Shown here piece after piece: positions 2,641-64,000 of a DNA stretch of 64,000 nt; the stretch's first letter is position 1, and each line of letters opens with the position of its first letter. The stretch lies in IMG/VR virus record IMGVR_UViG_3300046328_001165, positions 28,684 through 92,683 of that record; one strand, 5' to 3'. Origin of the DNA: a virus. Both the position numbers and the translations under genes were made by a program. The notes beneath the pieces were generated by a model, which was not told where the DNA came from, ran no database searches, and saw nothing but the letters and a program-made list of their open reading frames with translations.

Positions 2641-4155
2641 ATGCCATTGAACCGAGTTATCGAGCCAATGGCATTTCGTTTTGATGATGTAAGTTTTGCG
2701 ACACGCACTGAGATGCGTGAGGACGGTCTGTATGCATACAGCACCGTTTGTCGTGACGGGATACTAACGTATTTCCGAGGTGACGGCAAGCGAGTCCGTG
2801 AATTGCGACCTGCTTCGGCAAACCGCGATCGCGACTTCCTTGAAGCGCTGAAAGATCTGCCGATGACCGTCGAACATCCGACCTCTTTATTAAGGGGGAA
2901 ACGAGATAGTTCTATTGGTGAGTTAACAAGGGCGGGTGAGTACAACGATTCTGAGGGGGTTGTACAGAATATTGCCCGAATCTCTAACCCCGACTTTGCT
3001 CAGTCTGTAAGGGCTGGCAAAAAGAACGGTTTGAGCCTTGGGTATGAATGCGAAATTGTTGAAGCTCCTGGCGGGGTCTGGTTCGATGCGATCGACCAGA
3101 TTACCTATAAGGGCGATTTCGATCGCGTTCAAACCAAGATTCGACCAGACCATTGCGCCGCAACCGACAACCCACGCGGGGGGAGCGATGTCAGGATGCA
3201 CCTAGACAGCGCCGATACCGATGAGGACTCAGTTGTTGGTCTAGAGCGGTTTGACTCAATCCAAGTTGACCGTCCTAGTCCGAACAGCGTTGTTGTTATT
3301 TCCACAAACAAAAATGAGGGTAGCTCCGCTATGTCCGATTTAAAGACGAAAACCTTGCGCGTGGATGGCGCTGATTATTTGGTGGAGGAAGTAGCAGCCT
3401 ACCCTCTAAGTCAAAAGCTTGCCGAACTATCCACAATTAAAGCGCGTGTAGATTCTCTTGAGGCTGAACTCAAAGAGAGGATCGATACTATTGGCGAACT
3501 CACTTCTGATGTTAACCGCGCCAAGGGTCGTGCCGACGCTCTTGAAGATGAGTTAACCGAAACACTATCCGAGCTTGAAACCGCCCGTGCCGACGGAGAA
3601 AAGATGGCTAAGGAAGACGAAGAAGGTGATGAAGATGAAGACGGCGATGAAATGCCCGACTTTATCAAGAAAAAGATGAAGAAGAAGATGAAGTCTGGCG
3701 AGAAGATGGATGCCTCTGATCTGGCAATCATCCTCGACTCTGACCAAGTTCGTGAATTTATAGCCGAAGAAATTAACAACCAGACCGCAGATCGTCTTCA
3801 CGCTATTGGCAAAGCCAATGATTTACTTTCCGCTAAGGGGGTAAAGATTGAGGACGCGGGTATCGTAACCACGATGGATTCTACCGAGATTCGTCGGGCT
3901 GCGCTCAAAGCTATCAATCCTGATAGTGATCTAAGCGATCGCAACGACAGCTACATCGAAGCTCGCTTTGATAGCGCTGTTGAGTATGCTGCTCAAGCCC
4001 CTGCTACTAGCCATGCTGATCGTCTTGAGACCGCCGTAAAAGCTGGACGCACTACTCGTGGTGATTCTGAGCAGAAGAAGGATGCAGCAGAAGCCAACAA
4101 CGAGCGCTACGGTGAGAACCACAAAAAGCCCTTAACTCGTTCTACCAAGAAATAG
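2641..4155 (+). CDS. DUF2213 prohead protease/scaffold protein
   Basis: DGLY...RDGILTY...ELRP...LPMTVEHP...GLSLGYEC...QTKIRPDHCAA..PRGG N-terminal domain, then acidic coiled-coil scaffold; upstream of capsid genes. Confidence 0.85.
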   Translation: MPLNRVIEPMAFRFDDVSFATRTEMREDGLYAYSTVCRDGILTYFRGDGKRVRELRPASANRDRDFLEALKDLPMTVEHPTSLLRGKRDSSIGELTRAGEYNDSEGVVQNIARISNPDFAQSVRAGKKNGLSLGYECEIVEAPGGVWFDAIDQITYKGDFDRVQTKIRPDHCAATDNPRGGSDVRMHLDSADTDEDSVVGLERFDSIQVDRPSPNSVVVISTNKNEGSSAMSDLKTKTLRVDGADYLVEEVAAYPLSQKLAELSTIKARVDSLEAELKERIDTIGELTSDVNRAKGRADALEDELTETLSELETARADGEKMAKEDEEGDEDEDGDEMPDFIKKKMKKKMKSGEKMDASDLAIILDSDQVREFIAEEINNQTADRLHAIGKANDLLSAKGVKIEDAGIVTTMDSTEIRRAALKAINPDSDLSDRNDSYIEARFDSAVEYAAQAPATSHADRLETAVKAGRTTRGDSEQKKDAAEANNERYGENHKKPLTRSTKK

Positions 4156-5051: not shown

Positions 5052-5957
5052 ATGGCTACTGAAATTAAAAACGATGACTGGTCAGTGGGCTACTTTAAAG
5101 AGCAGCTCGTTGAACTTGAGCAGACGATGGAAAAAGAAGAGTACGAAGAGCTTTATTGGGCTAATGGTACTCTCGTTCCTCGCGAGGACTGGAATAAGCC
5201 TTGGCTTGAAGAAACTGGCTACCGCAAGGTGACTGGTATCGGTCGGTGGGAAGCTGCTCGCGATTACACTACTCACGTCCCTAACGTTGAGATCGTATCG
5301 AGAGAGTTCCGCCAGCGCGTTTCCGAGCACATCGGTGGCTACACTGTTAACGACAAAGAGCTTGAGCTTTCTCAGCAATTTGGCACAGGCATTGACGCTG
5401 AGAAAGTTCAGATCGTGCTTGAGGCGGGTCAGCAATATCTCGATAAGATGGTATTCCTTGGTGATGGGCAGCTTCGTGGCTTCTTCAACCACCCTGACAC
5501 CCTGAAGTCTTATTCAGCGTATCGCTTTGACAGCAATGCTACTGTTGCTCAGATGCTGGCTGTGTTGAACGACACTGGCAACTCTATGCGTCGCTTGACT
5601 CGTAATATCGAGACCCCCGACACCATCTTGTTTGCTCAGGCTGTTCACGACGAAATCAGCTTCCGTCGTTTGTCCGACTTCAATAGCGACTCGGTTCTTG
5701 ACTATTACCTCAGTAAAGCGACTTACATCAAAGATGTAATGGCTTTACTACCTCTTGAGGGTGTTGGTGATGGTAATTCCAACGTGTCCTGCTATTACAA
5801 GCGCGACCCCAAGAAGATCAAGTTCCGCATCACCGAGCCCTTCCAATTCAAGAAGTGGATCGAACTTCCTCGCGGTATGCAGCGCACTGCTCGCATGAGG
5901 TACGGTGGATTGATCATCAAACGCCCTTACTCTGTGAACTGGGTTCACGGCATGTAA
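5052..5957 (+). CDS. Major capsid protein (DUF2184, HK97 fold)
   Basis: FLGDGQLRGFFNHP, PDTILF, RYGGLIIKRPYS motifs; GGAGG SD. Confidence 0.85.
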   Translation: MATEIKNDDWSVGYFKEQLVELEQTMEKEEYEELYWANGTLVPREDWNKPWLEETGYRKVTGIGRWEAARDYTTHVPNVEIVSREFRQRVSEHIGGYTVNDKELELSQQFGTGIDAEKVQIVLEAGQQYLDKMVFLGDGQLRGFFNHPDTLKSYSAYRFDSNATVAQMLAVLNDTGNSMRRLTRNIETPDTILFAQAVHDEISFRRLSDFNSDSVLDYYLSKATYIKDVMALLPLEGVGDGNSNVSCYYKRDPKKIKFRITEPFQFKKWIELPRGMQRTARMRYGGLIIKRPYSVNWVHGM

Positions 5958-7082: not shown

Positions 7083-7502
7083 ATGGCAACATTCCCCGTC
7101 GTTACCTCAGACACCTTTACCTCCGACGCTACGTTTTCGGATTTTATTGGTGAGTCACCAACCTTTATCCAGAGTTGGCTAAACGTTTATTCGCGTTTCT
7201 GCTCGATCGAAGAGTGGGGTGATAATGCGGAAATGGCGGTAATGTTGCTGACCGCCCACTATTTAGCTCTAAACACTGAAGAAGGTACGGTCACGATTTC
7301 CAATGCCAAGGCGATCGATACTGGCGAGTCTATGTCGAATAGACGGACTTCAACCCCCGCCAACAGTAACGGCAAATTCTCCGATGTCTATCTATCGCGA
7401 ACTACCTATGGGCAGCAACTCTTGATGATCAAGGAATTGATATTGTCGGGTGGTTTTATGGGTGACAGTATCCCTGCCGTGCCGCCGTTTATTGCTTTCT
7501 AG
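7083..7502 (+). CDS. DUF4054 head-tail adaptor
   Basis: WG...LLTAHYLAL...YLSRTTYGQQLL signature. Confidence 0.75.
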   Translation: MATFPVVTSDTFTSDATFSDFIGESPTFIQSWLNVYSRFCSIEEWGDNAEMAVMLLTAHYLALNTEEGTVTISNAKAIDTGESMSNRRTSTPANSNGKFSDVYLSRTTYGQQLLMIKELILSGGFMGDSIPAVPPFIAF

Positions 7503-7530: not shown

Positions 7531-7562
7531 AAAAGCCCTAGAGAATCTTCTCTAGGGCTTTT
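7531..7562. terminator. Bidirectional intrinsic terminator
   Basis: AAAAGCCCTAGAGAA...TTCTCTAGGGCTTTT between convergent genes. Confidence 0.75.
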
Positions 7563-7592: not shown

Positions 7593-8069
7593 CTAGCCAA
7601 AGATTTCCTTTCTCCTTTCTTTGCTCAGGGACATCACCTCTTTGCGCGATACGTCTTTCCCTGTGGCGACAGACTTGGCGATTGCGCCTACAACCTTTAT
7701 GTCGTCCGTAACTGCGGTAGCAGATCTCTTGACTACATTTTTAGCGGCTCTCGCCACACTGCCAACACCACTTTTGACTTCACCTAAGTTCTGCTTTCTC
7801 TCTTGGCTTAAATCGTTAGTTCTACCTCCAAGTAATCTGAGATCGTCTTTTACCGCCTCAGCGGATCTCCCTACCACTTTTTTTTACGGCAGAGCCAAGA
7901 CCACCAGATCCTACCTTACACTTTTCAAGCATAGGTATACAGCGCGAACCACAGGGTTTATTGCCAATCTTGCATTTTGGTGCGTCCTCCCTTTTTTTTT
8001 TATCGAAGCCTCTGCATCTATACGCACTTGGAACTGGGAGATCGCGTATTTAACACTAGAATTAGACAC
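7593..8069 (-). pseudogene. Frameshifted member of the RxD/Cys4 modular family
   Basis: GAGGA SD plus GTG 8069; correcting A10 (7992-8001) and A8 (7878-7885) by one base each yields ...KREDAPKCKIGNKPCGSRCIPMLEKCKVG...VVGRSAEAVKDD. Confidence 0.7.
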
Positions 8070-8208
8070 GGTATAATCCTCAACGTTGATATAAGCAATT
8101 AAGACTTGTCGATTAGCAAAAAATACCACTTAATCTCAATTAGCGATCACACTATTAATATCTACGGCGATCGCTAATCTCCCAAGAAGGCTGCTTGTCC
8201 ACACATTC

Positions 8209-8613
8209 GTGCCGAACAATATCGTTATGTCGCTAGCTAACAAGATCACCACGAAACTTCAAGGATTGCGCGATCGCCTCGCAGGAGGTGCGATCGGTGC
8301 GCCTAATGTGTTGCCATTGACAGTTGTGACTCGCACCGCATCGGGTGAAACCAGTCTTGAAATCTTGCCGCATCCCACGATTCTGCGGGTAAACCCTAAA
8401 ACTGTAGCCCTGTTTGAAAGTACCAATATCAAGGTTGGTGTTGACGATTTTCAGATCAGCGGTATATCTGCGGCGTACACCGAGGCTCAGCTTACGGGCA
8501 AGGGTAAATATTACATCGTTGATGGGCGAATCAAGTGCAACGAGGTGATGGGCACTATCGAGAATAAGAGTTTTTCTTGGGAAATTATTTTGACGAGGAT
8601 GCCAAACAGATGA
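8209..8613 (+). CDS. Putative head-closure/head-tail joining protein
   Basis: 134 aa, beta-rich, near the adaptor gene; positional inference. Confidence 0.5.
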   Translation: MPNNIVMSLANKITTKLQGLRDRLAGGAIGAPNVLPLTVVTRTASGETSLEILPHPTILRVNPKTVALFESTNIKVGVDDFQISGISAAYTEAQLTGKGKYYIVDGRIKCNEVMGTIENKSFSWEIILTRMPNR

Positions 8614-9023
8614 ACACCATTTACGCAAGAATTGACACTCTTATTGACCAGCTCCGCGAAGATGCAAAGTGCGGATCGGGCAGTAAATCCTGCGGCAAGG
8701 TCTGCATCCCCCAAGAGAAGAATTGCTTAGGCGAAACAGCAAAAGCTTTTGGTGGTGGTGCGGCTCAAGCCCTTGCGGGTCCACTTGGCAGTGGCACTTA
8801 TCGGGCGTTGAGATCGCAGGGTCGTAGTCGAAGGACTTCTATTGCGGGTGCGATCGGAGCGAATGTAGCCGCTTCTGTGGGCAGTGTAGCTCTCGCTTCT
8901 TATGCGATGAACAAGGCTAAAGAAGGGCTTCGAGATCCTGTTAACAAGGGTGTAAGTCTTGGCAAAGGTATAACCAAGATGGCTGACAAAGATTTCGAGA
9001 AAGCCAAGAAAAAGGGTAAGTAA
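8610..9023 (+). CDS. RxD/Cys4 modular protein (putative internal head protein)
   Basis: ATGA overlap at 8610; MNTIYARIDTLIDQLREDAKCGSGSKSCGKVCIPQEKNC plus Gly/Ala helices. Confidence 0.7.
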   Translation: MNTIYARIDTLIDQLREDAKCGSGSKSCGKVCIPQEKNCLGETAKAFGGGAAQALAGPLGSGTYRALRSQGRSRRTSIAGAIGANVAASVGSVALASYAMNKAKEGLRDPVNKGVSLGKGITKMADKDFEKAKKKGK

Positions 9024-9025
9024 TT

Positions 9026-10870
9026 ATGTACGAGATCGCATCTCTATCAAAGGTAGTCCGCCACGATGTCCAAACAGAGGTTAAGGTTCCAGCGCAGAAC
9101 GGACGTAAGGCTTACTCGTATTTTCGCAATGCTAGCGCAGTTAAGAAAGGCGCTGCGGGTGTTGGCGCAGCTCTTGCTATTGGCGGACTGACTGCGGCGG
9201 CGATCGCGCTCAGGAAGAAGTCAGAAGAGTCAAATGCTTTGCCAGCACCAGTTGGGGTTCTCACTCCTATCGTTGCACCTCAATCCACTGCAAGTCGAGC
9301 TGGTGAGTTCGCCAAGAAAGCGGCGATCAAGGCTGGTAGGGTCGCAGGCGGAGCAGTCCTTAATGCTGCGGGAGCCGTAGTTATTGGTCAGGTCTCTGGA
9401 CGTGTTATCAAGGAAGCAGTAAAAGACAGAAGATCTCCTGAGCAAAAAGCGGCAGCTTGGAAGCAAAAGGAGGAAGAAGAAAGAGAAGGGAGGGAAGCTC
9501 GATACGCCGCGTTTTTGCAATCAGATCCTAGGGCTACGGCGAAAGATAATATTGAATATCAAGAGGGGATGGCTCAGAGGGTCGTCGAAAGAGTTCGAGG
9601 CGAGGAGCTAGCGCCCCTCATTGAGCAGGATGTATCAAAATATCTCAAAGAAGTGGAAGTGGCGGAAAAAGATCTTCTAAGCAAGATGTCTAGACCCGAT
9701 CGCCTGCCACCACCAAAGCCAAGACTAGAGGTTGGCGGAGCATTAGCCCCTGTCAACCAACCTCAAACCACTACACCCCCTATTCCAGATCGATTGCCAT
9801 ACAATCCTCGCGCACCCAAGGTGTCTACTAGCGGACTAACTTTTGCTGCAAGCGAACCTTCGGCACAACCTCAAAAACCCAAATTCGTCCAAGTTGCTGG
9901 TCAGGCTGGCGCTGCTTTGGGGCGCTTATATCGGCAAAGTAAAGAGCGGGATCGTATGGCTAGAGAAAATCTGGCGAATAATACCGTAGATCTTAATAAA
10001 GTCGCTGAAGGTGTAGGTCGAGGCGCTAGGTCTGTGTTGAGTGCTGTTGAGGGGTTCGCCCGTAAAGCCAAGCAAAGAGTTTCTGAAGATATCCAAACAA
10101 TTGACATAAAAGCCGAAGAGGTAAAAGAGTCGAAGGCATCTGAGGATCTCAAGGGAGTTCAGACCAACGCGCTTCCCGAAGGTGGCAAGAGAAAACCTGG
10201 TCGCCCGAAGACCAAGTTTACGCCTAAAGATTTTATTAGCCCAGACAGTAAACGGGCGAGAAACAACTCCATTTATATGCGTATTGACAGCTTTGTTGAT
10301 CGGCTCCGCAAGGATACCCAAATCGAAGTCAAAGTCCCAGCGCAGAACGGGCGCAAGGCTTACTCGTATTTCCGCGAAGGCAATGAAGGCGAGGTGGGTT
10401 CTCCACGGATACCCTCCCGCAAAATTGTAGCGGGTGTTGGAGGCGCGATTGCGGCGGCTGGGTTGGCTGGATTAGCAGCGATCGCACTGAGAAACAGATC
10501 GGAAGCGATGAAGACTGTTGCGCCCGATGCGAAGCCTAAAAAAGCGATTGATATCAAAAAAGATATTGTTATCCCTTCAGTGATTGGGGCGAGTAAAATC
10601 GTTTTAACCGCAGAACTGGTGAAAGGTCTTAATGGTGTGGTATCTAAAGTTAGGGGAGTTAAACCCTCGGTGAAGGAAGAGTCGAAGACTGTTCCCGATC
10701 TGAAAGCCCCCAAGCCCGATCCTAGTGGCAAGGAAACGATTACGCCCGAAGAATCGGCAAAAGTAGATCCAGTAGTGGAAGTACCCTCCTTACCCGCCGA
10801 GCCAGAAGAGTCGAAGGTAGTTGCTCCAAAACGAGGAAGGAAGCCTCGCGCTGTCAAGCAGGCTTCGTAA
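9026..10870 (+). CDS. RxD/KAYSY two-module protein
   Basis: Two copies of RxD.Q.EVKVPAQNGRKAYSYFR, each followed by a hydrophobic Gly/Ala helix; low-complexity basic linkers. Confidence 0.75.
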   Translation: MYEIASLSKVVRHDVQTEVKVPAQNGRKAYSYFRNASAVKKGAAGVGAALAIGGLTAAAIALRKKSEESNALPAPVGVLTPIVAPQSTASRAGEFAKKAAIKAGRVAGGAVLNAAGAVVIGQVSGRVIKEAVKDRRSPEQKAAAWKQKEEEEREGREARYAAFLQSDPRATAKDNIEYQEGMAQRVVERVRGEELAPLIEQDVSKYLKEVEVAEKDLLSKMSRPDRLPPPKPRLEVGGALAPVNQPQTTTPPIPDRLPYNPRAPKVSTSGLTFAASEPSAQPQKPKFVQVAGQAGAALGRLYRQSKERDRMARENLANNTVDLNKVAEGVGRGARSVLSAVEGFARKAKQRVSEDIQTIDIKAEEVKESKASEDLKGVQTNALPEGGKRKPGRPKTKFTPKDFISPDSKRARNNSIYMRIDSFVDRLRKDTQIEVKVPAQNGRKAYSYFREGNEGEVGSPRIPSRKIVAGVGGAIAAAGLAGLAAIALRNRSEAMKTVAPDAKPKKAIDIKKDIVIPSVIGASKIVLTAELVKGLNGVVSKVRGVKPSVKEESKTVPDLKAPKPDPSGKETITPEESAKVDPVVEVPSLPAEPEESKVVAPKRGRKPRAVKQAS

Positions 10871-10897
10871 TCACAGAAAAATGGCAGACAGGTAATC

Positions 10898-13525
10898 ATG
10901 TACGCGATCGCACCAACACCAGTAATTCAAAACGCAGATCCACTCGCAGCCAGAAAGATAATCGCGAGAATATTAACTCGCATAATTTCTCGCGCTTACG
11001 GAAGCATCGACCAAATCGTTAGTATCGACATTGCTGATGATGGTCTGATTACCTGTCTATTTCGTGACGACGACAAAGATCGAAAGTTAATTCGATTAGT
11101 GTTAGGCGATCGCGCTGAATACAGACAAATTCTTGATGGGCGTAATGATTCGCTAAATATCGATACAGATCAGTATTTAGTCGCGTATGCCAATAGTATT
11201 GGTCAGCGTACCGACAAGGTATCTAAACCGAATAACTGCAAAATAGGTACATCCTGTAAGGGCGCTTGCATCTCTAAGACCGATGTTTGTCGTGTCGATG
11301 TACCAGAGGTTTTGAATAGGCAGGAGATTTCCGATCTGAATGACGCGGTAAACGACGTTCAGAGGGCAAAATTTGTTGGTGTTGCGCCAGTTTCGGACGA
11401 ACTTGATAGCAAGAATATTCGCGAATTGAAGGATGAAGCCCGTAAAAGGGGCGTGTACCGCTATTCGTACATGAATCAATCTCAGTTGCGAGAGTCTATT
11501 CGTTTGCAACAGGCTAATCCCGAACGCCAAAATATTGTGCGAGAAGGGCTAAGCCGTAATGCGGCGAGTAAGAAAGCGCTCAAAAGCTTACTGCCTCAGC
11601 CTGTGGCTGGAGCATGGAAAGACATTGAGAAAATCAGTAAATTCTTTGGCGACAATCGCCCTGCGGCAGGAGTATTGGCGGCAAGCGTATTGCTAGGTAT
11701 TCCATCGTCGGTAATGCTTTCAGCTCGCGATCGCTACAAAGAAGGCTTACCCGAATCGGCACTAATGGCATATCAAAGATCGCAAACCACCCCCGTAGAG
11801 CCAACTAGCAAACCTCAAATCACTTTTGCTGTAGGTGGGTTCTCTAATCTCGGATCTTCGGGCAGTAAAGTTGCTGAATACTTGAAGACACCTTTAGACA
11901 CATCGAAGCGCGAGCAGTGGTTTAACAAGACCCAAGAAATCATCGCCTTTGATAGTCCTGAATTTAATGTTCCTCCTACAAAAATCGACAAAAAAGACAA
12001 GGATGGTAAATACAATCCGTTGTACTTGGGGTATGTTGCCAAGGAAAGTTTTGGTAAATATCTAAGCAATGTTGTAGGCGGCAGAAATGAAGCTGCTGTA
12101 GACTTGGCTTCCAAGTTATATGCTTATGGCTCCAAGTACCGTAACAAACCTTTAAACGTCGTTAGCTATGGTTCTGGTGGCAATGTAATCGACGAAGCTG
12201 CGGAAATCGTTAGCCGCATCAAGCCAGAAAAGGGGCTTGATGGCAGGGAGATCTTAAAGCGGCTAAATATTGCCAGACTTGGCGGAGCCTCTTTTGGTTT
12301 AACTGGTGGCACAACTCAAGACGAAAAGAACTGGGCAAGTATTAATAACCGTACTATCACGTCAAAAAACGATCCGTTTTCGATCCTACCCAAGAGGTTC
12401 TCTCAATTTGTTAGCTCTGTAAAGGGTGGTGAGATTGAGGATTACCTGACGAATAGCGATGCTAGAGACAAGATTCGTGAGGTGTTTGGCTTCTTCTCCA
12501 ACTCTGCTGCGGGAAGTAAGATAACCAATGAAGCGAGTGACGAGATCAAGAAATCCTTGAAGGATGTAGCTAAGACGATCAATCCAAAGCTCGGAAAGTT
12601 GGCGAACCTGATTGACGGCATCTCGTCGAAATACTCAAACAACCCCGTAGCGGCGGCGATCGATACTGCTGGGGCTTTAGCTGTCACGGGTGTTGCCGTG
12701 GTCGCTAAGTCCAAGCTTAATTACAAAGAGAATCTTGGCAACTCGGCAAGCAAAGCTCAGGAGATGGTTTCTAGTGGGCAGGTCTCCCCCATCTCCATTT
12801 CCAAGCCCAACGTTATTATCACTGTCGGAGATGCCGAGATAGATGGCGATGAGATGAAGAGAAAAATCGAAGGCGCAAAACAAAGCTCTGGGCGGGGGTT
12901 GGTAGCGAATAACTACCTAAATAACAGTGAAGTAATTGCATTTGACAGACCTTTTCTAACACCGCCCTCAAGGAATAAATTTATGGCTCCTGTAGATCTA
13001 ATGGCAAAGACCTATGAAGCTGTTATGAATAGAACGCTAGCAGCGGGTACAGATCCAGAAGCCATTCGACTGGCTGCAAATATTTACGCGATCGCAAACA
13101 CCCCCTACGCGGGTACTGCTAACTCCTATCCGTCTGTCTCCGTCGTGGGACTGAAGCAGGGTGGCGAAACAACGAAAAGGGCTTTGGATATTTTGGAAAA
13201 AATGACCAAGGTTCAGGTTGGGGCAAAGGCAGATCCCAATATAGTTGGTGGAAGATCTGTTTCCTCTGGTCAGGTGCATATCATCACGTTAGGAACCCCT
13301 GAACTCGATTTCGGGGGTAAAGGCGCAAACGCCGCTAGAAATGATTTATGGGTAGATGGGGACATATTTGGGCAAACACCTTTAAAAGGGTCTGCCCCAT
13401 CGTACATCTCTACACAAGGTAATGGCAGTGCTAGTGATTACCTTGAAGCTCCTGTGGTTGCGGATCTATTGGGCAAGCTATCCTCAACCTCGTTTGCGAG
13501 AGCGAAGAAAAATAGGAGGCAGTAA
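10898..13525 (+). CDS. RxD/Cys4 protein with Rho_N-like domain and two degenerate alpha/beta-hydrolase-like domains
   Basis: CKIGTSCKGACISKTDVC; KNIRELKDEARKRGVYRYSYMNQSQLRESI; LNVVSYGSGG...IARLGG...SKNDP and VSVVGLKQGG...IITLGTP...VDGD. Confidence 0.65.
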   Translation: MYAIAPTPVIQNADPLAARKIIARILTRIISRAYGSIDQIVSIDIADDGLITCLFRDDDKDRKLIRLVLGDRAEYRQILDGRNDSLNIDTDQYLVAYANSIGQRTDKVSKPNNCKIGTSCKGACISKTDVCRVDVPEVLNRQEISDLNDAVNDVQRAKFVGVAPVSDELDSKNIRELKDEARKRGVYRYSYMNQSQLRESIRLQQANPERQNIVREGLSRNAASKKALKSLLPQPVAGAWKDIEKISKFFGDNRPAAGVLAASVLLGIPSSVMLSARDRYKEGLPESALMAYQRSQTTPVEPTSKPQITFAVGGFSNLGSSGSKVAEYLKTPLDTSKREQWFNKTQEIIAFDSPEFNVPPTKIDKKDKDGKYNPLYLGYVAKESFGKYLSNVVGGRNEAAVDLASKLYAYGSKYRNKPLNVVSYGSGGNVIDEAAEIVSRIKPEKGLDGREILKRLNIARLGGASFGLTGGTTQDEKNWASINNRTITSKNDPFSILPKRFSQFVSSVKGGEIEDYLTNSDARDKIREVFGFFSNSAAGSKITNEASDEIKKSLKDVAKTINPKLGKLANLIDGISSKYSNNPVAAAIDTAGALAVTGVAVVAKSKLNYKENLGNSASKAQEMVSSGQVSPISISKPNVIITVGDAEIDGDEMKRKIEGAKQSSGRGLVANNYLNNSEVIAFDRPFLTPPSRNKFMAPVDLMAKTYEAVMNRTLAAGTDPEAIRLAANIYAIANTPYAGTANSYPSVSVVGLKQGGETTKRALDILEKMTKVQVGAKADPNIVGGRSVSSGQVHIITLGTPELDFGGKGANAARNDLWVDGDIFGQTPLKGSAPSYISTQGNGSASDYLEAPVVADLLGKLSSTSFARAKKNRRQ

Positions 13526-13983
13526 TGAAATTAGATACCAAAATCAAGGTTGACGTGCCAGCAGCGCAAGGGCGAAAAGCGTACAGCTACGCTTTAGCTC
13601 TTAAAAGCCTAAAGCGACGCGAAAAAAGGGCTCAGTCTAATTCAGACTCAAGCAGATTAGACACAACATGCGATCGCGGCAAACCATGCCAAGGCGAAGA
13701 CGGACAAACTTACTGCATCCCCCAAGGGGCTACCTGCGGTAAAGGCAAGGTCGGCAGAATCATCAAAGGTGTTGCTGGCGCGGTTGGTCGCGGCGTGATT
13801 ACTGGCTTAACTGCCGCCGCGATCGCCAAACTTGCTAGCAAGGGTAAGGCTGGGTTGAAAGAGGATTTTAATACGGCGAAGATCATTTTTAATGCGGGTC
13901 GCACCACTGGCAAGATTGAGTCCAAGGTGGCGAATGGGGTCAAAGCTGTTAGTCGGATAATTAAGAACCGAGGTAAGAAATGA
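13525..13983 (+). CDS. KAYSY plus RxD/Cys4 modular protein
   Basis: KLDTKIKVDVPAAQGRKAYSY and RLDTTCDRGKPC...CIPQGATC plus Gly/Ala helix; TAATG coupling. Confidence 0.7.
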   Translation: MKLDTKIKVDVPAAQGRKAYSYALALKSLKRREKRAQSNSDSSRLDTTCDRGKPCQGEDGQTYCIPQGATCGKGKVGRIIKGVAGAVGRGVITGLTAAAIAKLASKGKAGLKEDFNTAKIIFNAGRTTGKIESKVANGVKAVSRIIKNRGKK

Positions 13984-15095
13984 CAAGAGATTTAGCGGAC
14001 GACCTAGCCTACCTTGAGGGGCAGATATCCGTGGCTCTACGCCATGATGCTGGCAGAAAGCTCAAATGTAAAGAAGGCTACGTTCAGCGCGGGAATGCCT
14101 GCCAAAAAGTCACTAAGAAGGCTTCTGGAGGTAATCTCGCGAGGAGTATTGGTACGGGCTTGGGTGTTGCGGCTTTAGCTGGAGGTGCGGCGGCTGGAGT
14201 GGCGATCGCGTCAAGACGGGGCAGTCAATCAGGCAATTCGCCTGTAAGCAAACCAGATACTTTGCCTGCAAAAATCGAGACGGTTTCCTCGGCTTTACTC
14301 CCCAAAAGAAGAGAATTGATCGCGTATAAAGCGTCAAAGGTGCTCTCAGATAAGCGGGTTCGCAAAGCGGCGATCGCGGCAGGTAGTACTGGAGCTGTAA
14401 TTGCAACAGTTGTCGGAATAGGCAGTGTAAAGCTAACCAAAGATTATGCGGTTAAAGACATTGCATTGATAATGACCTACAAGCAGAGCTTGATACTAGG
14501 GAAAGCCGCAGATCGCATCCTAGATAAATCCGATATAAACCCAGACTTAAAAGGTAAGGCTAAGGACTTGATTGGTATGACCAAATTAGCCTTGGCTAGA
14601 AAAACTATGTCCGTCAAGGGTCGCGACCTTATCGATGTGGATAAGGAGTCAAACAGCTTTACATATAGAGACAGAAAGAATGGAGGGATTTATACAGTAG
14701 CTTCTGTTGGTCCAGCCTTGTATACCTTTACCAGCGTGTTTAAAAAAGAGGTTTCCGCAGGGAAAGTTTACGAGGTTTCTTTTGCTATAAACGAATCCAA
14801 CAATAGGGAAGAATCAGCGAATCTTGGGGCTTCAGGAGCTAAGCAAATTATAAGATTAACAAGACAGTCTTTCGACAAGCATGTTGAAGCCGTGCCCGAC
14901 AATGTAATTCTAACCGCAGGTGCTTACGACAAAGATGGTGCAGGAAAAAAGCGTAAAAACATCTATGAGAATGTCGGTTTTGCCCCTATGGAGGGTCAAG
15001 ATCCTATGGTCTTGTACGCAGCAAAGAAGGATGGAAAACTTCAGCCGCTGTCGAGTGTCTACAGCGTGAAGAAACCCCCAGAAGCTAAGACTTAA
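13980..15095 (+). CDS. RxD/Cys protein with C-terminal GNAT-like domain
   Basis: RHDAGRKLKCKEGYVQRGNAC; hydrophobic helices; C-terminal YEVSF...KRKNIYENVGF. Confidence 0.55.
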   Translation: MTRDLADDLAYLEGQISVALRHDAGRKLKCKEGYVQRGNACQKVTKKASGGNLARSIGTGLGVAALAGGAAAGVAIASRRGSQSGNSPVSKPDTLPAKIETVSSALLPKRRELIAYKASKVLSDKRVRKAAIAAGSTGAVIATVVGIGSVKLTKDYAVKDIALIMTYKQSLILGKAADRILDKSDINPDLKGKAKDLIGMTKLALARKTMSVKGRDLIDVDKESNSFTYRDRKNGGIYTVASVGPALYTFTSVFKKEVSAGKVYEVSFAINESNNREESANLGASGAKQIIRLTRQSFDKHVEAVPDNVILTAGAYDKDGAGKKRKNIYENVGFAPMEGQDPMVLYAAKKDGKLQPLSSVYSVKKPPEAKT

Positions 15096-15504: not shown

Positions 15505-15548
15505 CCATAAAAATAACTGAGAAGAATATTTCTCGGTTATTTTTATGG
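15505..15548 (+). terminator. Hairpin/terminator overlapping the TMP start codon
   Basis: CCATAAAAATAACTGAGAA-gaatat-TTCTCGGTTATTTTTATGG (19-bp stem, one G-U). Confidence 0.6.
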
Positions 15549-18500
15549 CTTCCCAGCAAACAAACGTTGTCGAGATCTTAATACAAGCCAAAGATCAAGC
15601 CTCAAAGACGATTGGCACATTAAGCGACTCACTTGGCACGGCTGGAGCCGCAGCTCAGTTTGCTCAGGGAAAAATAACAGCTCTTGGTGGCGCATTGCTC
15701 ACCACGTCTGTTTCTGGTATCAAGTCTTTAGGGTTGTTAGGTAGCGCGATTCAGTCGATTCGCTCGTCACTGGATACCCCTGTTGGGCAAACATTGATCC
15801 AACAGATCTCCTTGGCAGCGGACGAGGCTCTTGGCAAAGCAGCTAAACTCTCGACGCTAGTTAAAGAAGTATCTGGTGTATCCAAGGATTTTGGATCGGG
15901 CTTTGCGTCAAGGTCTTCGAGTAGCACGATTCAGCTATTCGACCCGTCGGTAACTGGGAAGCAGTTAGAAAACGTAGTTATCAAGACGGCTGATACATTT
16001 TCTAGGTCTCTTGAACAAAAGGTTAGAAATTCCGATCTAGCAACAGCGTTTGAATCCAAACTCGGCGTAAGTATAGATTCGATCGCTTCTCAGTTGGACA
16101 GCTCACTGTCTGAAACTCTTCTTTCAGGATTTGTGGGTAAGACGCTACCCAGCGCCCTTGACACGGCGTTAGGTAGCGTCTTCGGCGTGAACCTCACCTC
16201 AAAAATTGTTCAATCTATACAAGCCGCAGGTAAGTCAAACCTTCTTGGCGGAGCTGTTGGTAAACTGGCTCAGGGGTCCGTAAGCGGGGCGGCAAGAGAA
16301 TTGGTGATCGGAGAGCTAACCCCAAATCTTGAAGGGGCGCAGTTGGCTGGAGCCAAACTGTCTAATGTCTTTGGTAAGAAAGTAGCTCAAGCGGTATTAG
16401 GAGAAAGAACTCCTGCTAGCGCAGAATTTAAGCAGATTGACGAGCAATTAGGTGGGGCGCTTGGTGATGTCATTAGCCGCCTTGGGCAAAGATTCCCTGA
16501 TGTTCTTGGAAAAAGCGACCTCCCTATCGGCAAGTTACTTGCCACCAAGTTGAGGGGGCTTGCTGAGGTTACATCAAAAAACGAATTACAGGCAGCAGGG
16601 AATCTGTTTGTTGAAACAGCCTTTTCTGGGTTAAGGGGCATTCGCAAGGACTTTTTGGGCGACGACTTGAATGCGGTTTTTGATCTTGTCATAGCACCAG
16701 CTTTCGACGCTCAGAAGGAAAACCTGAAAAAGCTGATTGGCATAGATTCCGACACATTTTCTCAAGGGTTTTTAGACCCGCTCAAAAAAGCGTCTAAAAA
16801 TCTAGCGAAGGGCTTTGACGACAGCTTAGAGGCAGGGCTTGGTGCGCTAGGGAATGGAGGTGCAATCGCCGAGTACTTGGGGGATGTTGATGAGTTTTTA
16901 GGTGGTGGGATAACAGAAGCCTTATCTCTTGCGGGGAATAAAGCCGCCTCCAGTTTTGCTGACGGGTTTAGAAGCGCAATTTTTGAGGAAATTACTGGCG
17001 TAATCGACAATGTTGACGCTTTTGTTCTGGGAAATTTAGAACAGGTTAAACAGATCCCCCAGAAGCTTACACAGCCCGTTGGCTTGGTGTCATTGGTTGC
17101 AGATCCACTCGCGGGTGCTACCGAGCCGCTAGAGCTTTTTGAGTTGCTTGAAGCGGGTGCGGGTAAGGCAACCAACGCCATTTTTGAGGTTTCTCAGCGA
17201 CTAACATTCCTTTCTTTTGGCTTTCAAGCTCTCCAAGGTTTCGTTCAAAACGGTCCATTCGATCTGCTTATTGGGCAGAATGCGAGACTGCAAGAACAAC
17301 TTCTAGCGACACAGGCGAGCCTTGTAGCCACAAACAAGATTCTTCAGAATGGCGTCGTAATTTCCGATCCGACAGCAGCTATCAAGGCTTTGGGTCCTGC
17401 GGTTGAAGGTGCGATCGCCAAAATTCGGAAAGACTCACTAGAGCTTGTCGGCGTAACCTCCAAAGATCTCGTAGATTTATTTCAGATTGTTGCTGGTCAG
17501 GCAAGTAATATTGGGGCGAACCTAGATCAGTCCGCCAATATTGTCACGTCAACCGCTGCTGCGCTCGGAACTCTAGGCATCCCTTTGTTTCAGGCAAGGC
17601 AAGAAATCACCTCAATCGTGCAGGGGACGATTGACCAAAACTCTTTGCTAGCCAAAAACTTGAATCTCAACAATGAGATGGTCAACAAGTGGAAGGCACA
17701 GGGAACCTTCGTTGACGAGCTGTTAAAAAGACTGGAAGCGTTTAGGGCGGGGAACAAACTCGCCAGTCAGACGATATCGGGGATTACGAGTAACATTACC
17801 GAACTTTTTGATGAGATTGGACGCAAGGCAGGGGCTAAATTTTTAAGCCCGATTGTCAAGGAATTGGACAATGTTTATCAGTTTCTTGCGGCAAACCAAG
17901 AGACGATTTCAGCCCAAGTTGAGCAGCTTGTTTCTACGTTATTCGTAGCCTTTGACAAGATCGTAGTCCTGTTTAAGTCTTTGGGAGATCCGATCGCCAA
18001 AATCTTTGGTGGCATTCCTGCTTACTTAACAGGTTCGTTGGTCGGGGCTATTACCGCGTTCTCTGATGCAATAGTTTTTACCGTAAACGTTCTCAAGCCA
18101 GCTATCTCTGTGTTTGCCGAGGTTTTTAAACTTATTGCGCCGCTAGGGGGCTTATTTATAACGGCTTCCATCGGTGCAAAGGTCCTATCCGCAGGGATAC
18201 TAGGTCTGGGGCAAGGGTTTGGGTTTCTCGCAAAACTTCTACCTGGTCTTGGCGAACTACTCTTTCTTGTTGATAAGAGATCTAACAGTCTTTTTAATCA
18301 GTTTCTAAACCTTACATCGGTATTAGGTAATAGGGGAGCGGCAGGTTTTCTAACCTTTGCGGCAAATTTAGACAAGATACCTGGAGCCGCAGGTTTCGCT
18401 ACCAAGCAATTGCAGGGTCTTCTTGGTAGTCTAGCTCCTTTGTCTGGGTTTCTGGTCTCTTTAGCGCCTCAAGTCGGGGGGTTGGGAATAAAGCTGGCGG

Positions 18501-21500
18501 GTTTAGCCCAGGCGTTTCCTGCCCTTAAAAATGTTTTTGAGAAGGCTTTTATTGGCGCTCCAGGCGCTTTGTTGGTCTTGTCGAGAGTCGTTGGCAAGAG
18601 CGAGATCTTTGGAAGTCTCGCCCCCCTCATTGGGGATGCATCAAAGCAGCTTGCGAAGTTTACGGGTATTGCTGGTAATGCGGAGAAGGCGAATTCCTTA
18701 CTCGCCAAGAGCTTGCAACTAGGTGGCGCAGCCGCTAGAGAGTTCGCCGTAAATAGCGTATTACTTGGCGCTGGAATTGGTATCGGGTTCATCTTCTTTG
18801 ACCAGCTAATCCTAAAGAATAAGGGTCTCCAAAAAATTATTCAAGACCTAATAGGAACTATCCGTAAATTTGCGGACACGGTGGGTGCGGTTCTTGGTCC
18901 AGTGTTTAAACTGATTGGCGACACAATTTTGCCGCTGTTTACTTTTGGGGAGAATTCTAATCCTTTCCAGAAGATTGTTGGTGGATTGCTGATTGCGATC
19001 GCGGTTGTAAAACTTTTTGGTGGAACGATAACCAATGTATTTAAAACCGTAAACGTCAGTATCGGAACTCTTGGGACTGGCATTTCGGAGACTTTTACTA
19101 AAATCAAGAGGGCTAATGACAGCCTAAAGGAAATACTGGGGCTTGCAAGCGAGGAGGGTAAAAGCAAGACTTTTACCAGCCCCGTCCTAGAGGAAGACCC
19201 AAAGAAAAGAAGGGAAGCTAGATCTGCTCTACTCAAGGAAGCTTTGGCAGCTAAGAAGCAAGAGTCGCTCGCTTTAAGTTCTGGGGAAGCTGAAGCCGCA
19301 AGGAGTAAAAAGAATTCACTTACGCAGGTAGCGCAATCCTTGGTAACAGGGGAGGCAAAAATTTCGATCCCTTCGGCGGGGATTATAACTCAGCGGGATG
19401 TGACCCAAGCCAAACTGCGTGTATCCGAGATAACAAAAGATATCATTCGGTTCTCGAAAGAGGCTAGACAGAGCGCGACCGTAGACCCTGTGGCTTCAAG
19501 TATCGCAACAGCGAGAAGGGAGTTTGCGATCGCTCAGGCAAATGCGGTTAGAGCAGGTATAGAGAATCAGAAACTTATAGCCCCTTTAAGTCAGTTGCTG
19601 TTTGAGAAGCCCACTGCTTTACTGTTTCAGCTCGGAGCTTCTGCATCTGAAGGGTTCAGATCAAACCTTTTGAAAGCTGGAGACGCGATTAATAATTTCG
19701 CCCTGAGAGGTGGGTTCGCATTATTAGAGCTTGAAAACAAAATAAGAAGTGTCCCAAAAGTCTTTAACGACATAGCTTTGAAAGGAGGCTTTGCTCTGCT
19801 GAGCCTTGAAAACGGATTGAGAAACATTCCAAAATCCCTTGATACTATAACCACAAAAGCTGGGTTTGCCTTGCTAAGCCTTGAAAACGGTCTTAGAAAT
19901 ATTCCCAAGACTTTTGACAACATTGCTCTGCGAGGAGGGTTTGCCTTACTAGAAATAGAGAAGGGTTTAAGAAACATTCCCACGGCTTTTTCTGGGGCGA
20001 TCGCCTCTGTTGATCAGAAAATCAAAAGCCTGTTTAGTGGTGGAGCAAAAAGGTTTGATTTCGGCGAGGCTCTCAGGGACTTGGATACAAGGGCAGGCAA
20101 CTTTGTCGATCCTGACCGAGCAGAAAGGCTGAAAACTCTAGAAGAAATAAAATCCTTTAACGAAAAGCGCAAAGCACTCATTGCTGACGCTAAAACCATA
20201 GATGCTGGTACAGGGCTGTCTGCGGAGGGCTTTACCGCCGAGAAGATCGGGAAGGAAGTCCAAAGTGTAGATGCTAATATTCAGGCGTTAAGCGCAAAAG
20301 CTGAGCAGCTAGATATTCCCGTAAGAAAAGCGGCGAAGGGGCTTGTCAACTCCTTTAAAAACGTTATTGCAGAAATCGGTCCAACCTTACTGCTCACGGC
20401 TTTGTTCGCTGGCATTACTACCTATATCGGTTTCATTGATGAGCAGTCAAAAATTGCCGCCGACGGCGCTGAGCGATTAGGTAACACCCTCAGAGAAAGT
20501 AAGGCGAAACTCGATATCCTCAACAAGTCTCAGGGTAGAGATGCTTTGGGTGAACTAACAAAGCTTACTGCGGAAAGACAAAGGTATGTAGATGCTATCA
20601 AAGATCCTAAAGTACTTAATGACGACCCAACCCTAAAGCTTTACGATCGCCAAATAAAGAAACTTCAAGAACTTAGGGCATTACAAGCTAAACCTGTAAA
20701 TGCCGAAGGACAAATCAGACAGGAGACAGACAAGGAATTTGAGTCCTTCGATAAGAAGTTTATCTCCTTCTTGGGTGGTCTCACTGGAACCAACGTAAAG
20801 GAATCAACCAATCAGGTAAAGATAGCCTCAGAGAATGTCAACTTAGCCCAAAGCCAAGCTGAGGGTCGTGAGCTGAGGTCTCAGCTTCGCGAACAAGCAG
20901 CTTTGCAGGAAGGGCTGATCAAGCTTGAACAGAGAAAGAATCTGCTTCAAGGGCAAGGTGACAGCGACGGGGTGGCTCAGATAGAGATTGAAATAGAGAC
21001 ACAGAAAGAATCCATCGCGGTAAGAAAGAGCTTTCTTGATACGGTTATCAAGGGTGTTGAAACCAATAAGTTAGACAGCCAAAGTAAAAGAGATCTTTTG
21101 GAAGATCTAAAAAAGCTTAAAGTTGCCTACGATCCCGCTAACTTAAAAATCGCACCTATCGACCTACCTCGTATTGGTGGTGCTATTGAACAGGCTGCGT
21201 CGAGATACCAAGCTGCGGTTACGGCGCTTGCTAGATCTGCTGGAGATCCAACCCTGTTTAAGACAAAAATAACAGAGCTGCTCGAAACGGCAACCGCATT
21301 ACAAGATGCAGGTATATTGCGAGCCGATGAAGTAGCCAAAAACTTTATCGGTATCGCTGCCAACGTATCTGCTGATCGCGATCAGCAGATTAAAGCCCAG
21401 CAAGCTATCACTGAGGCTTACCAGAAAGAGTCTCAGAAGCGTATTGCTACGATCGATGCACAGCAGGCGAAGATCCAAGCTTTGCTCGCTACTGGGAAGA

Positions 21501-63794: not shown

Positions 63795-64000
63795 TTACGC
63801 TACAATGTCAGCAGTAACTAGCTCTGTAGCTGTGCCATTCTTGGCTGTGCCATTCTTGGCTGTGCCATTCTTGGCTGTGCCATTCTTGGCTGTGCCATTC
63901 TTGGCTGTGCCATTCTTGGCTGTGCCATTCTTGGCTGTGCCATTCTTGGCTGTGCCATTCTTGGCTGTGCCATTCTTGGCTGTGCCATTCTTGGCTGTGC
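63795..64000 (-). CDS. Partial CDS ending (AKNGT)n-ATELVTADIVA*
   Basis: Open minus frame through the repeat to TAA at 63795, immediately followed by a terminator hairpin. Confidence 0.4.
   Translation of the reverse strand, partial: TAKNGTAKNGTAKNGTAKNGTAKNGTAKNGTAKNGTAKNGTAKNGTAKNGTAKNGTATELVTADIVA
63829..64000. repeat. Perfect 15-bp tandem repeat GCTGTGCCATTCTTG, at least 11.5 copies
   Basis: Directly visible; continues past the window edge. Confidence 0.95.

Follow-up and report, generated by a model that had tools for sequence, protein, structure and literature searches.

Modular R-x-D-tagged proteins beside the head genes of an uncultured cyanophage, candidate virion cargo processed by a DUF2213 protease

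In phage T4, the small basic internal proteins IPI-III and the ADP-ribosyltransferase Alt are packed into the head, lose a short N-terminal signal to the prohead protease gp21, and are injected together with the DNA. gp21, a member of the assemblin clan, cuts at L/I-x-E, and the scaffold itself is cut at many copies of that motif. Herpesvirus assemblin, which has a Ser-His-His triad and is fused to its scaffold, cuts itself at Ala-Ser sites lying after the protease domain and near the scaffold C-terminus; we know of no cargo system attached to it. This article is about six genes (positions 7593 to 15095) situated between the head genes and the tape-measure gene of an uncultured freshwater cyanophage of the CL131/PaV-LD kind. 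The DNA analysed, hereafter “the window,” is the terminal 64 kb of a 92.7-kb (92,683-bp) IMG/VR viral contig (IMGVR_UViG_3300046328_001165). The six proteins have short modules in common, each starting just past R/K-x-D. It is probable, although far from certain, that the cassette encodes virion-packaged accessory proteins, most likely head-internal, which the DUF2213 protease of the phage is proposed to cut at R-x-D and which would be released into the host with the DNA. The cut, the location in the head rather than the tail, and the delivery into the host are the parts of this reading that we infer.

In the proposed mechanism, each cassette protein would be a chain of one or more units, and each unit would consist, in this order, of an exposed R-x-D, a beta-hairpin knuckle, a Gly/Ala-rich hydrophobic helix with basic flanks, and a payload. 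Knuckles with four cysteines (Cys4), with two cysteines (Cys2) or with the KAYSY motif would be interchangeable. The DUF2213 protease, whose own scaffold is rich in R-x-D followed by a small residue (R-x-D-small), would cut after the Asp, and multi-unit polyproteins and single-unit genes would yield equivalent products. Such processing would account both for the free fusion, splitting and permutation of units and for the invariance of the motif at their borders. The proteins would then travel in the head and enter the host together with the DNA. No literature description of this R-x-D-knuckle-helix unit was found.

Other described systems come close in one respect or another. According to PMC10052503 and PMC7411985, the phiKZ-like and SPN3US giant phages pack many paralogous proteins into the head, which are substrates of the prohead protease and are ejected into the cell; these phages belong to another lineage and have a protease of another family. 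Polyvalent proteins combine several conflict-type enzyme domains, from 2 to 15, in one polypeptide delivered with the DNA, and their release by built-in metallopeptidases has been proposed (Iyer et al., 2017; PMC5512222). That paper makes no mention of cysteines, zinc ribbons, cyanophages or PaV-LD, and “prohead protease” occurs in its reference list only. One relative (P0016) weakly matches the ART-PolyVal model (ART, ADP-ribosyltransferase), but the junctions here carry the motif of the head protease, and the window proteins hold at most two domains. The T4 internal proteins resemble the cassette proteins, known here from sequence, in being basic and, together with Alt, in carrying a motif of P3-x-P1(acid) form that is also repeated in the scaffold. 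The differences are the motif itself (R/K-x-D against L/I-x-E), the DUF2213 protease fused to its scaffold, the chaining of units into polyproteins, and the place of the conserved part, which here follows the site (knuckle and helix) and in T4 precedes it.

Closest of all are Aphanizomenon phage vB_AphaS-CL131 (CL131) and Planktothrix phage PaV-LD, whose capsid proteins are about 33% identical to that of the window and whose gene order is similar. Each has seven Cys4 units, CL131 in gp44, 45, 47 and 48, and PaV-LD in open reading frames (ORF) 061, 065, 078-081 and 085, all named “hypothetical” or “virion.” Nearly all of these units are preceded by an aromatic residue, R-x-D-A and a Lys-rich linker, and the Gly/Ala helix often follows. 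The two phages also have the same lipase-like repeat with a conserved juxtamembrane motif, and the presence of such proteins in virions is experimental. Most of the genes occupy the same genome position as the cassette, except PaV-LD ORF061 and ORF065, which lie in the head module. On the other hand, there is no detectable DNA similarity to the window, and KAYSY units are restricted to the window's close relatives.

Units and payloads of the cassette

The six genes and the parts of their products are the following (pI, isoelectric point):

7593..8069, minus strand: inverted family member, broken twice at homopolymers; R-E-D 7984-7992, Cys4 7918-7974, A10 tract 7992-8001, A8 tract 7878-7885
8610..9023, plus strand: 137-aa protein made of a unit only, pI 9.9; R-E-D 8655-8663, Cys4 8670-8726, hydrophobic Gly/Ala segment 8838-8900
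9026..10870, plus strand: 614-aa protein with two KAYSY units, the remainder Pro/Lys-rich; unit 1 with R-H-D 9059-9067, hairpin 9068-9127, helix 9149-9217; unit 2 with R-K-D 10307-10315, hairpin 10316-10375, helix 10421-10492
10898..13525, plus strand: 875-aa protein; N-domain aa 15-79, R-T-D 11207-11215, Cys4 11237-11290, Rho_N-like helix-hairpin 11399-11518, hydrophobic helices 11660-11728 and 12644-12709, two alpha/beta-hydrolase-like domains 11795-12487 and 12809-13507, both without nucleophile
13525..13983, plus strand: 152-aa protein with two units, pI 10.3; K-L-D 13528-13536, KAYSY hairpin up to 13590; second unit with R-L-D 13654-13662, Cys4 variant 13669-13737, helix 13768-13827
13980..15095, plus strand: 371-aa protein; R-H-D 14040-14048, two-cysteine hairpin 14067-14102, hydrophobic helices 14145-14216 and 14364-14429, GNAT-like domain about 14577-15059

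The original prediction, made from the letters of the window, had named these six genes and their modules, and every one of them is present where it was placed, directly behind R/K-x-D. A strict four-cysteine pattern (C, 3-10 residues, C, 2-4, C-I/V/L, 4-8, C) has three matches in the six-frame translation of the whole contig, all within the cassette (8670-8726, 11237-11290 and, on the minus strand, 7918-7974) and all with R-x-D 3-8 residues upstream. In 13525-13983, the copy at aa 49-71 is a variant with wider spacing. The Cys modules predicted at 8610, 7593-8069, 10898 and 13525 are accordingly Cys4 or a variant of it, whereas the one at 13980 is a distinct conserved two-cysteine hairpin (aa 30-41), of which two further copies exist, in P0020 and P0021. 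KAYSY occurs exactly three times (9107, 10355 and 13576), twice in the 9026 gene and once in the 13525 gene as had been foreseen; the two copies within 9026-10870 belong to a 71-nt DNA repeat, 82% identical. The Gly/Ala hydrophobic segment expected behind the modules is found in all five intact genes. The first plus-strand gene likely starts at ATG 8610, which gives the 137 residues of the database gene call (P0115), and not at TTG 8577.

Reading the minus-strand gene through takes two frame changes, at A10 and at A8. Both tracts are unchanged in contigs of three other freshwater metagenome runs, so the frame breaks are not a one-off assembly error and are real in the population; as contigs mask minority length variants, this comparison speaks to the prevailing tract length and not to phase variation or slippage. 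The gene may be dead or may be decoded by slippage. Between it and the convergent DUF4054 gene lies a perfect palindromic hairpin (7531-7562), which resembles a bidirectional terminator, although a consensus scan did not call it (four T's only). On the plus strand, a strong sigma-70-like promoter match (8050-8077; 11 of 12 positions, 16-nt spacer) stands upstream of the 8209 gene, and the cassette block may thus own a promoter, downstream of the inserted minus-strand gene.

Pfam and PHROGs assigned no family to any of the six, with only weak matches to Rho_N (E 0.02) and phrog_38146; a MuF (SPP1 gp7-like) domain was matched neither by Pfam or PHROGs in any cassette protein nor by Pfam in the relatives scanned; and blastn of the cassette against 50,697 phage records found no match. 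In the AlphaFold2 (AF2) model of the 875-aa protein (mean predicted local distance difference test, pLDDT, 73), the knuckle consists of three short strands and the large domains have a minimal lipase/cutinase fold, with lipases, cutinases and a type VI secretion system lipase effector as Foldseek matches (prob 0.98-1.0, E about 6e-3). According to the alignment, domain 1 has Gly at the nucleophile position and Gly at the His position while keeping the Asp; domain 2, judged by its sequence and not by the alignment, has L-K-Q-G-G at the equivalent elbow. The two domains are therefore not hydrolases. The Ser of Y-G-S-G-G in domain 1 was considered as a nucleophile and rejected, because the alignment puts it one position past the elbow nucleophile, which is Gly. 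A homolog, P0019, passes the Pfam cut-offs for DUF676, Palm_thioest and Abhydrolase_6, has an intact G-H-S-A-G elbow when read by eye, and would appear to be an active hydrolase. Upstream of R-x-D, the same 875-aa protein has a confidently modelled small alpha-plus-four-strand domain (10940-11134, aa 15-79) that recurs, sometimes twice, in the homologous polyproteins P0019 and P0011. If R-x-D is cut, this domain would come off as a separate piece.

For the C-terminal domain of the 371-aa protein, all top 50 rows of the VIA structural comparison are GNAT (best Z 7.4 over 126 aa, root-mean-square deviation 3.3, in the middling range). The top Foldseek rows are GNAT acetyltransferases as well (E 7e-3), and so are the Atlas structure leads; Pfam gave no match for the protein, and the Atlas feature-search scores, all below 0.8, were uninformative. 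There is moderate support, then, for a GNAT-like domain at this end. The window's payloads can thus be listed as none or low-complexity basic sequence (three genes), two dead lipase-like domains (one gene) and a GNAT-like domain (one gene). Payloads that look effector-like, in line with the original prediction, are found in relatives: DnaJ (J-domain), LRAT and the hydrolase exceed the Pfam cut-offs, and ART-PolyVal (P0016) and RelA/SpoT match weakly. P0020 and P0027 have domain matches above the cut-offs, and the window proteins hold 0-2 domains. With its J-domain, acyltransferase, ADP-ribosyltransferase-like and alarmone-synthetase-like payloads, the relatives' set points to the first steps of host takeover.

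How mobile the units are can be judged from three IMG/VR relatives (L005-L007). Their capsid proteins are 91-92% identical to that of the window and the 134-aa protein encoded upstream is 90.6% identical; the cassette proteins are 40-68% identical and differently arranged. In L005 and L006, the window's 137-aa Cys4 protein forms the C-terminal unit of a longer chain (468 or 533 aa), and the window's 614-aa protein corresponds to parts of two separate genes in L006 and L007. Of the 152-aa protein, the relatives hold the second unit only, as proteins of 110-112 aa, which suggests that a KAYSY unit was gained ahead of a 110-aa-type protein. The minus-strand gene is not present in any of the three. 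A metagenomic homolog (P0020) even combines the 875-aa type, an LRAT domain and the 371-aa type in a single chain with R-x-D-hairpin junctions. Unit borders in relatives fall at gene starts or within genes, and units being permuted, fused and split in this way, unit borders and gene borders are interchangeable. With flanking genes about 90% identical, the cassette is the polymorphic modular family that had been proposed.

The R-x-D motif and the DUF2213 protease

The protease is encoded upstream of the cassette, in the head module:

2641..4155, plus strand: DUF2213 head-maturation protease fused to scaffold, 504 aa (Pfam DUF2213 E 2e-11, 44.6 bits against a cut-off of 22; phrog_530 E 1.5e-46)

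The motif that marks the unit borders, where its role as a cut site is putative, is about tenfold enriched in this protein. It has 11 copies of R-x-D-[ASGT], where shuffled sequences would have 1.3 (p<0.0005). The counts are likewise 11 against 1.1 in close relatives, 12 against 1.0 in PaV-LD ORF071 and 4 against 0.6 in CL131 gp38. In nearly all of 38 DUF2213 homologs, down to 25% identity, either this motif or, in the few remaining, K-x-D-[ASGT] is several-fold enriched. R-x-E-[ASGT] is never enriched in DUF2213 proteins, nor is R-x-D-small in capsid, tail or tape-measure-like proteins (5 observed against 6.5 expected in the 2923-aa giant protein downstream of the cassette).

The second line of evidence is co-occurrence. 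DUF2213 was found in 7 of 8 genomes or contigs with R-x-D-tagged units, namely five viral contigs (four with DUF2213, the exception being a 24%-complete fragment) and three Nostoc genomes (all with DUF2213). It was found in 0 of 6 with untagged Cys4, a set made up of four viral contigs, including a complete 279-kb genome, and two Pseudanabaena genomes that have secreted Cys4 proteins only (Fisher exact about p=0.002, hand calculation). The knuckle is therefore a general module, and it is R-x-D ahead of the knuckle that goes with the DUF2213 protease. The check proposed along with the original prediction, whether modules co-occur with DUF2213, thus came out in favour of a link that now has two independent statistics behind it, the enrichment in the protease-scaffold and the co-occurrence. 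Cys4 by itself is not specific; it occurs without R-x-D in other phages and in secreted bacterial proteins.

In an alignment of 29 DUF2213 homologs, H79, S132 and H171 are invariant and, judged by conservation, would form a putative assemblin-like Ser-His-His triad. Three Asp residues are near-invariant, D15 near the N-terminus, D189 just past the protease domain and D444 near the C-terminus; this layout is the one expected for putative self-processing sites, and D189 and D444 match the self-cut positions of herpesvirus assemblin, whose sites are Ala-Ser instead of R-x-D. In the cassette itself, R104, D106 and the four Cys of the 875-aa protein family are all invariant in 21 homologs, down to 29% identity. 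Both AF2 models place R-x-D outside their well-modelled parts, in coil (pLDDT about 60-74) between the small N-domain and the knuckle of this protein, and in a region below pLDDT 50 of the 371-aa protein.

Arg-x-Asp is most likely the cut site of the phage's own head protease. The main rival to this reading, which we regard as unlikely, is that R-x-D is an uncut docking motif, common to scaffold and cargo by scaffold mimicry, that binds the inner capsid or the protease-scaffold and leaves the proteins at full length. Enrichment and co-occurrence tie R-x-D to the scaffold without proving hydrolysis, and the motif is retained where the leader is 1-3 residues long, so that leader removal seems pointless. 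Moreover, a fragment of gp24 of phage Pa193, a DUF2213-family protein, stays in the mature capsid via salt bridges; in an alignment of this gp24 (PDB 9b40), no clear R-x-D pattern was seen around the retained fragment. Docking would, however, require 9-13 copies of the motif in one scaffold, which is unusual, whereas multi-site scaffold cutting is the rule for assemblin-clan proteases (T4 gp22, phiKZ-like phages). R-x-D shares its P3-x-P1 acid form with L/I-x-E, the rule that T4 gp21 follows. The near-invariant D15, D189 and D444 stand at domain borders of the protease itself, and fusion and fission of units are easier to tolerate if the products get separated.

What precedes the site does not look like an address. 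The original prediction had the leader direct each protein to the prohead. This claim finds no support: leaders show no conservation and can be as short as a single residue, as in P0019 (M-R-S-D) and the window's 152-aa protein (M-K-L-D), or longer than 150. What is conserved comes after the site, and a conserved targeting sequence of the T4 type, at the N-terminus and ahead of the site, is lacking. An address, if there is one, is more probably the R-x-D motif itself or the knuckle-helix unit that would be retained.

No published cleavage rule for DUF2213 proteins, including any Asp rule, was found in the literature. DUF2213 is one of the large families of phage head proteases, and a code as simple as R/K-x-D-small, if true, would make the mature ends of head proteins predictable from sequence and virion-delivered proteins recognisable in uncultured phages.

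Virion location of unit-bearing proteins

Are proteins with this unit part of the phage particle? For CL131 they are, and abundantly so. Liquid chromatography-tandem mass spectrometry of CsCl-purified particles detected ORF044-049 without exception (PMC6293099). With 123 peptide-spectrum matches (PSMs) over 453 aa and with 175 PSMs, respectively, ORF045 and ORF048 are as abundant as the capsid protein (86 PSMs over 310 aa), and the DUF2213 protein was detected too (90 PSMs). ORF044-048, all detected, hold all seven CL131 units, and ORF045 (gp45; record L003, 39949-41310) equals the capsid protein in PSMs per residue. In PaV-LD, the unit carriers ORF081 and ORF085 are annotated as virion proteins. 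The cassette proteins would thus be tied to the virion through their homologous unit-bearing CL131 counterparts, and the expectation that proteins with these modules are found in purified virions is borne out for that relative. The CL131 supplement reports coverage and no peptides, and its data speak to presence in the particle and not to cut sites. As a cultured relative, CL131 makes the idea directly testable.

These data come from whole virions, with head and tail unseparated, and the second rival explanation starts from there: the cassette proteins might be tail components, such as tube proteins, partners of the tape measure in the tail lumen or assembly factors, and any processing would be unrelated to the prohead. 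Their genes do stand directly upstream of the tape-measure-like gene, their Gly/Ala hydrophobic helices are like those of the 2923-aa giant protein, and GenBank notes a weak similarity of CL131 gp47 to “tape measure domain protein.” In addition, the CL131 authors could identify no major tail protein (PMC6293099), and ORF045 is as abundant as the capsid. We nevertheless judge a tail location to be improbable. The pI of the cassette proteins is 9.3-10.3, the opposite of that of capsid, head-completion (p145, p202, DUF4054) and most tail-module proteins (4.3-5.7). The tag is shared with the head scaffold and is not enriched in the giant tape-measure-like protein, and J-domain, LRAT and GNAT payloads are not features of a tail tube. 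PaV-LD ORF061 and ORF065, finally, lie within the head module, between the portal and protease genes. The basic charge, the shared tag and these two PaV-LD genes are the reasons to favour the head interior over the tail.

It has also to be considered that the proteins may stay outside the particle altogether. They might be membrane proteins produced in the infected cell, active for instance in superinfection exclusion, control of lysis or remodelling of the envelope, and merely share domains with CL131 virion proteins. Transmembrane-like helices are present in every cassette protein, the Cys4 knuckle is found in secreted bacterial proteins, and the virion proteomics come from CL131 and not from this phage. 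This explanation is very improbable, as the cassette lies inside the structural gene block and on its strand, homologs are abundant in purified CL131 virions, and the link of R-x-D with the head protease would be left unexplained.

Several observations weigh against packaging in the head followed by cleavage. In no phage does an N-terminus, a peptide map or a band size show R-x-D to be the cut site, the conserved motif could be one for binding and not for cleavage, and some units have degenerate sites (F-D-A, V-D-S, L-D-S). The virion evidence was obtained for unit-sharing proteins and not for this phage itself; the most abundant of them, CL131 ORF045, could in principle be the major tail protein, and the cassette adjoins the tape-measure gene, in the usual place of tail genes. 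Lastly, with the window's lipase-like domains dead and three proteins without recognisable payload, “effector” is a term that fits the relatives better.

The unit in other genomes and the surroundings of the cassette

Beyond CL131 and PaV-LD, a degenerate DNA pattern located more units in 21 stretches from 17 IMG/VR contigs. A corresponding scan for KAYSY returned close relatives of the window only, plus one chance match with stops (L029). A profile of the unit (45 positions, built from 29 units) was also run in an exhaustive search of 1.84 billion representatives, where it matched 553 cluster representatives (E<=0.001), 73 of them with E<=1e-10. Some of the matches are polyproteins, which reach 3641 aa and as many as seven matched stretches. 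Of the 204 Cys4 units in the 92 matches that are 250 aa or longer, 149 have R-x-D no more than 18 residues ahead of them (background 8.6%). The Asp mostly precedes the first Cys by 3-5 residues, its commonest successor is Ala, and half of the units have a transmembrane-like helix within 90 residues. In phages whose hosts are bloom-forming filamentous cyanobacteria, the combination of Cys-hairpin and Gly/Ala-helix marks a lineage-wide set of packaged proteins that reshuffles fast, and proteins could be loaded into phage particles with the unit as a natural carrier.

Without R-x-D, the knuckle is found further afield. The Cys4 motif, usually in two copies, is present in small signal-peptide proteins of Caulobacterales, Bdellovibrionales, Sphingomonadales and others, and Pseudanabaena also has small signal-peptide proteins that carry it. 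No Pfam family was found for these proteins (e.g., P0058, P0059, P0101; loci L041-L078). A second group of phages (L021:6790-7989 (-), L008-L010, L012, L014, L017, L019, L022-L024, L028; contigs of 18-279 kb) has an untagged Cys4 knuckle about 35 residues from the N-terminus of proteins of 150-443 aa with differing C-termini, one of them weakly kinase-like. DUF2213 is absent from all four contigs tested (110-279 kb), and Peptidase_S77, looked for in the phages with untagged Cys4, was not found. In this second group, R/K-T-E-A/G is conserved near the N-terminus and could be the site of another protease. A weak likeness of Cys4 to the LDL-receptor class A repeat (profile against PDB sequences, E 0.006) was set aside as a chance agreement in cysteine spacing.

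A broader reading, which we find rather unlikely when its claims are taken jointly, treats the unit as a device for delivery and anchoring that was borrowed from extracytoplasmic proteins of bacteria, and R/K-x-D-small as a general cleavage code of the whole DUF2213 family. After ejection, the hairpin knuckle, with the same Cys4 motif as those secreted proteins, would stay and oxidise in the periplasm, the Gly/Ala helix would span the cytoplasmic membrane, and the payload (GNAT, J-domain, ART, kinase or LRAT) would be held at the inner face of the host membrane, beside the entering DNA. If this were true, the sequences of thousands of phages could be used to predict their head cargo.

The remaining features around the cassette are:

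5052-5957: capsid protein, PF09950, head module
7083-7502: DUF4054 protein, head module
15545..24316, plus strand: 2923-aa tape-measure-like giant protein, 11 hydrophobic segments; borders the cassette downstream without belonging to it

The giant protein occupies the position of the tape-measure genes in CL131 and PaV-LD. Tape measures are single, very long and mostly helical proteins that scale in length with the tail, whereas those of the cassette are modular and 137-875 aa long. The contig, with an estimated completeness of 69%, was obtained from a freshwater metagenome, and near-identical copies exist in five more freshwater runs. At its end, a 15-nt tandem repeat (63829-64000; 11.5 copies, 100% matches) extends to the last letter, and this perfect repeat may be the reason why the assembly stopped there.

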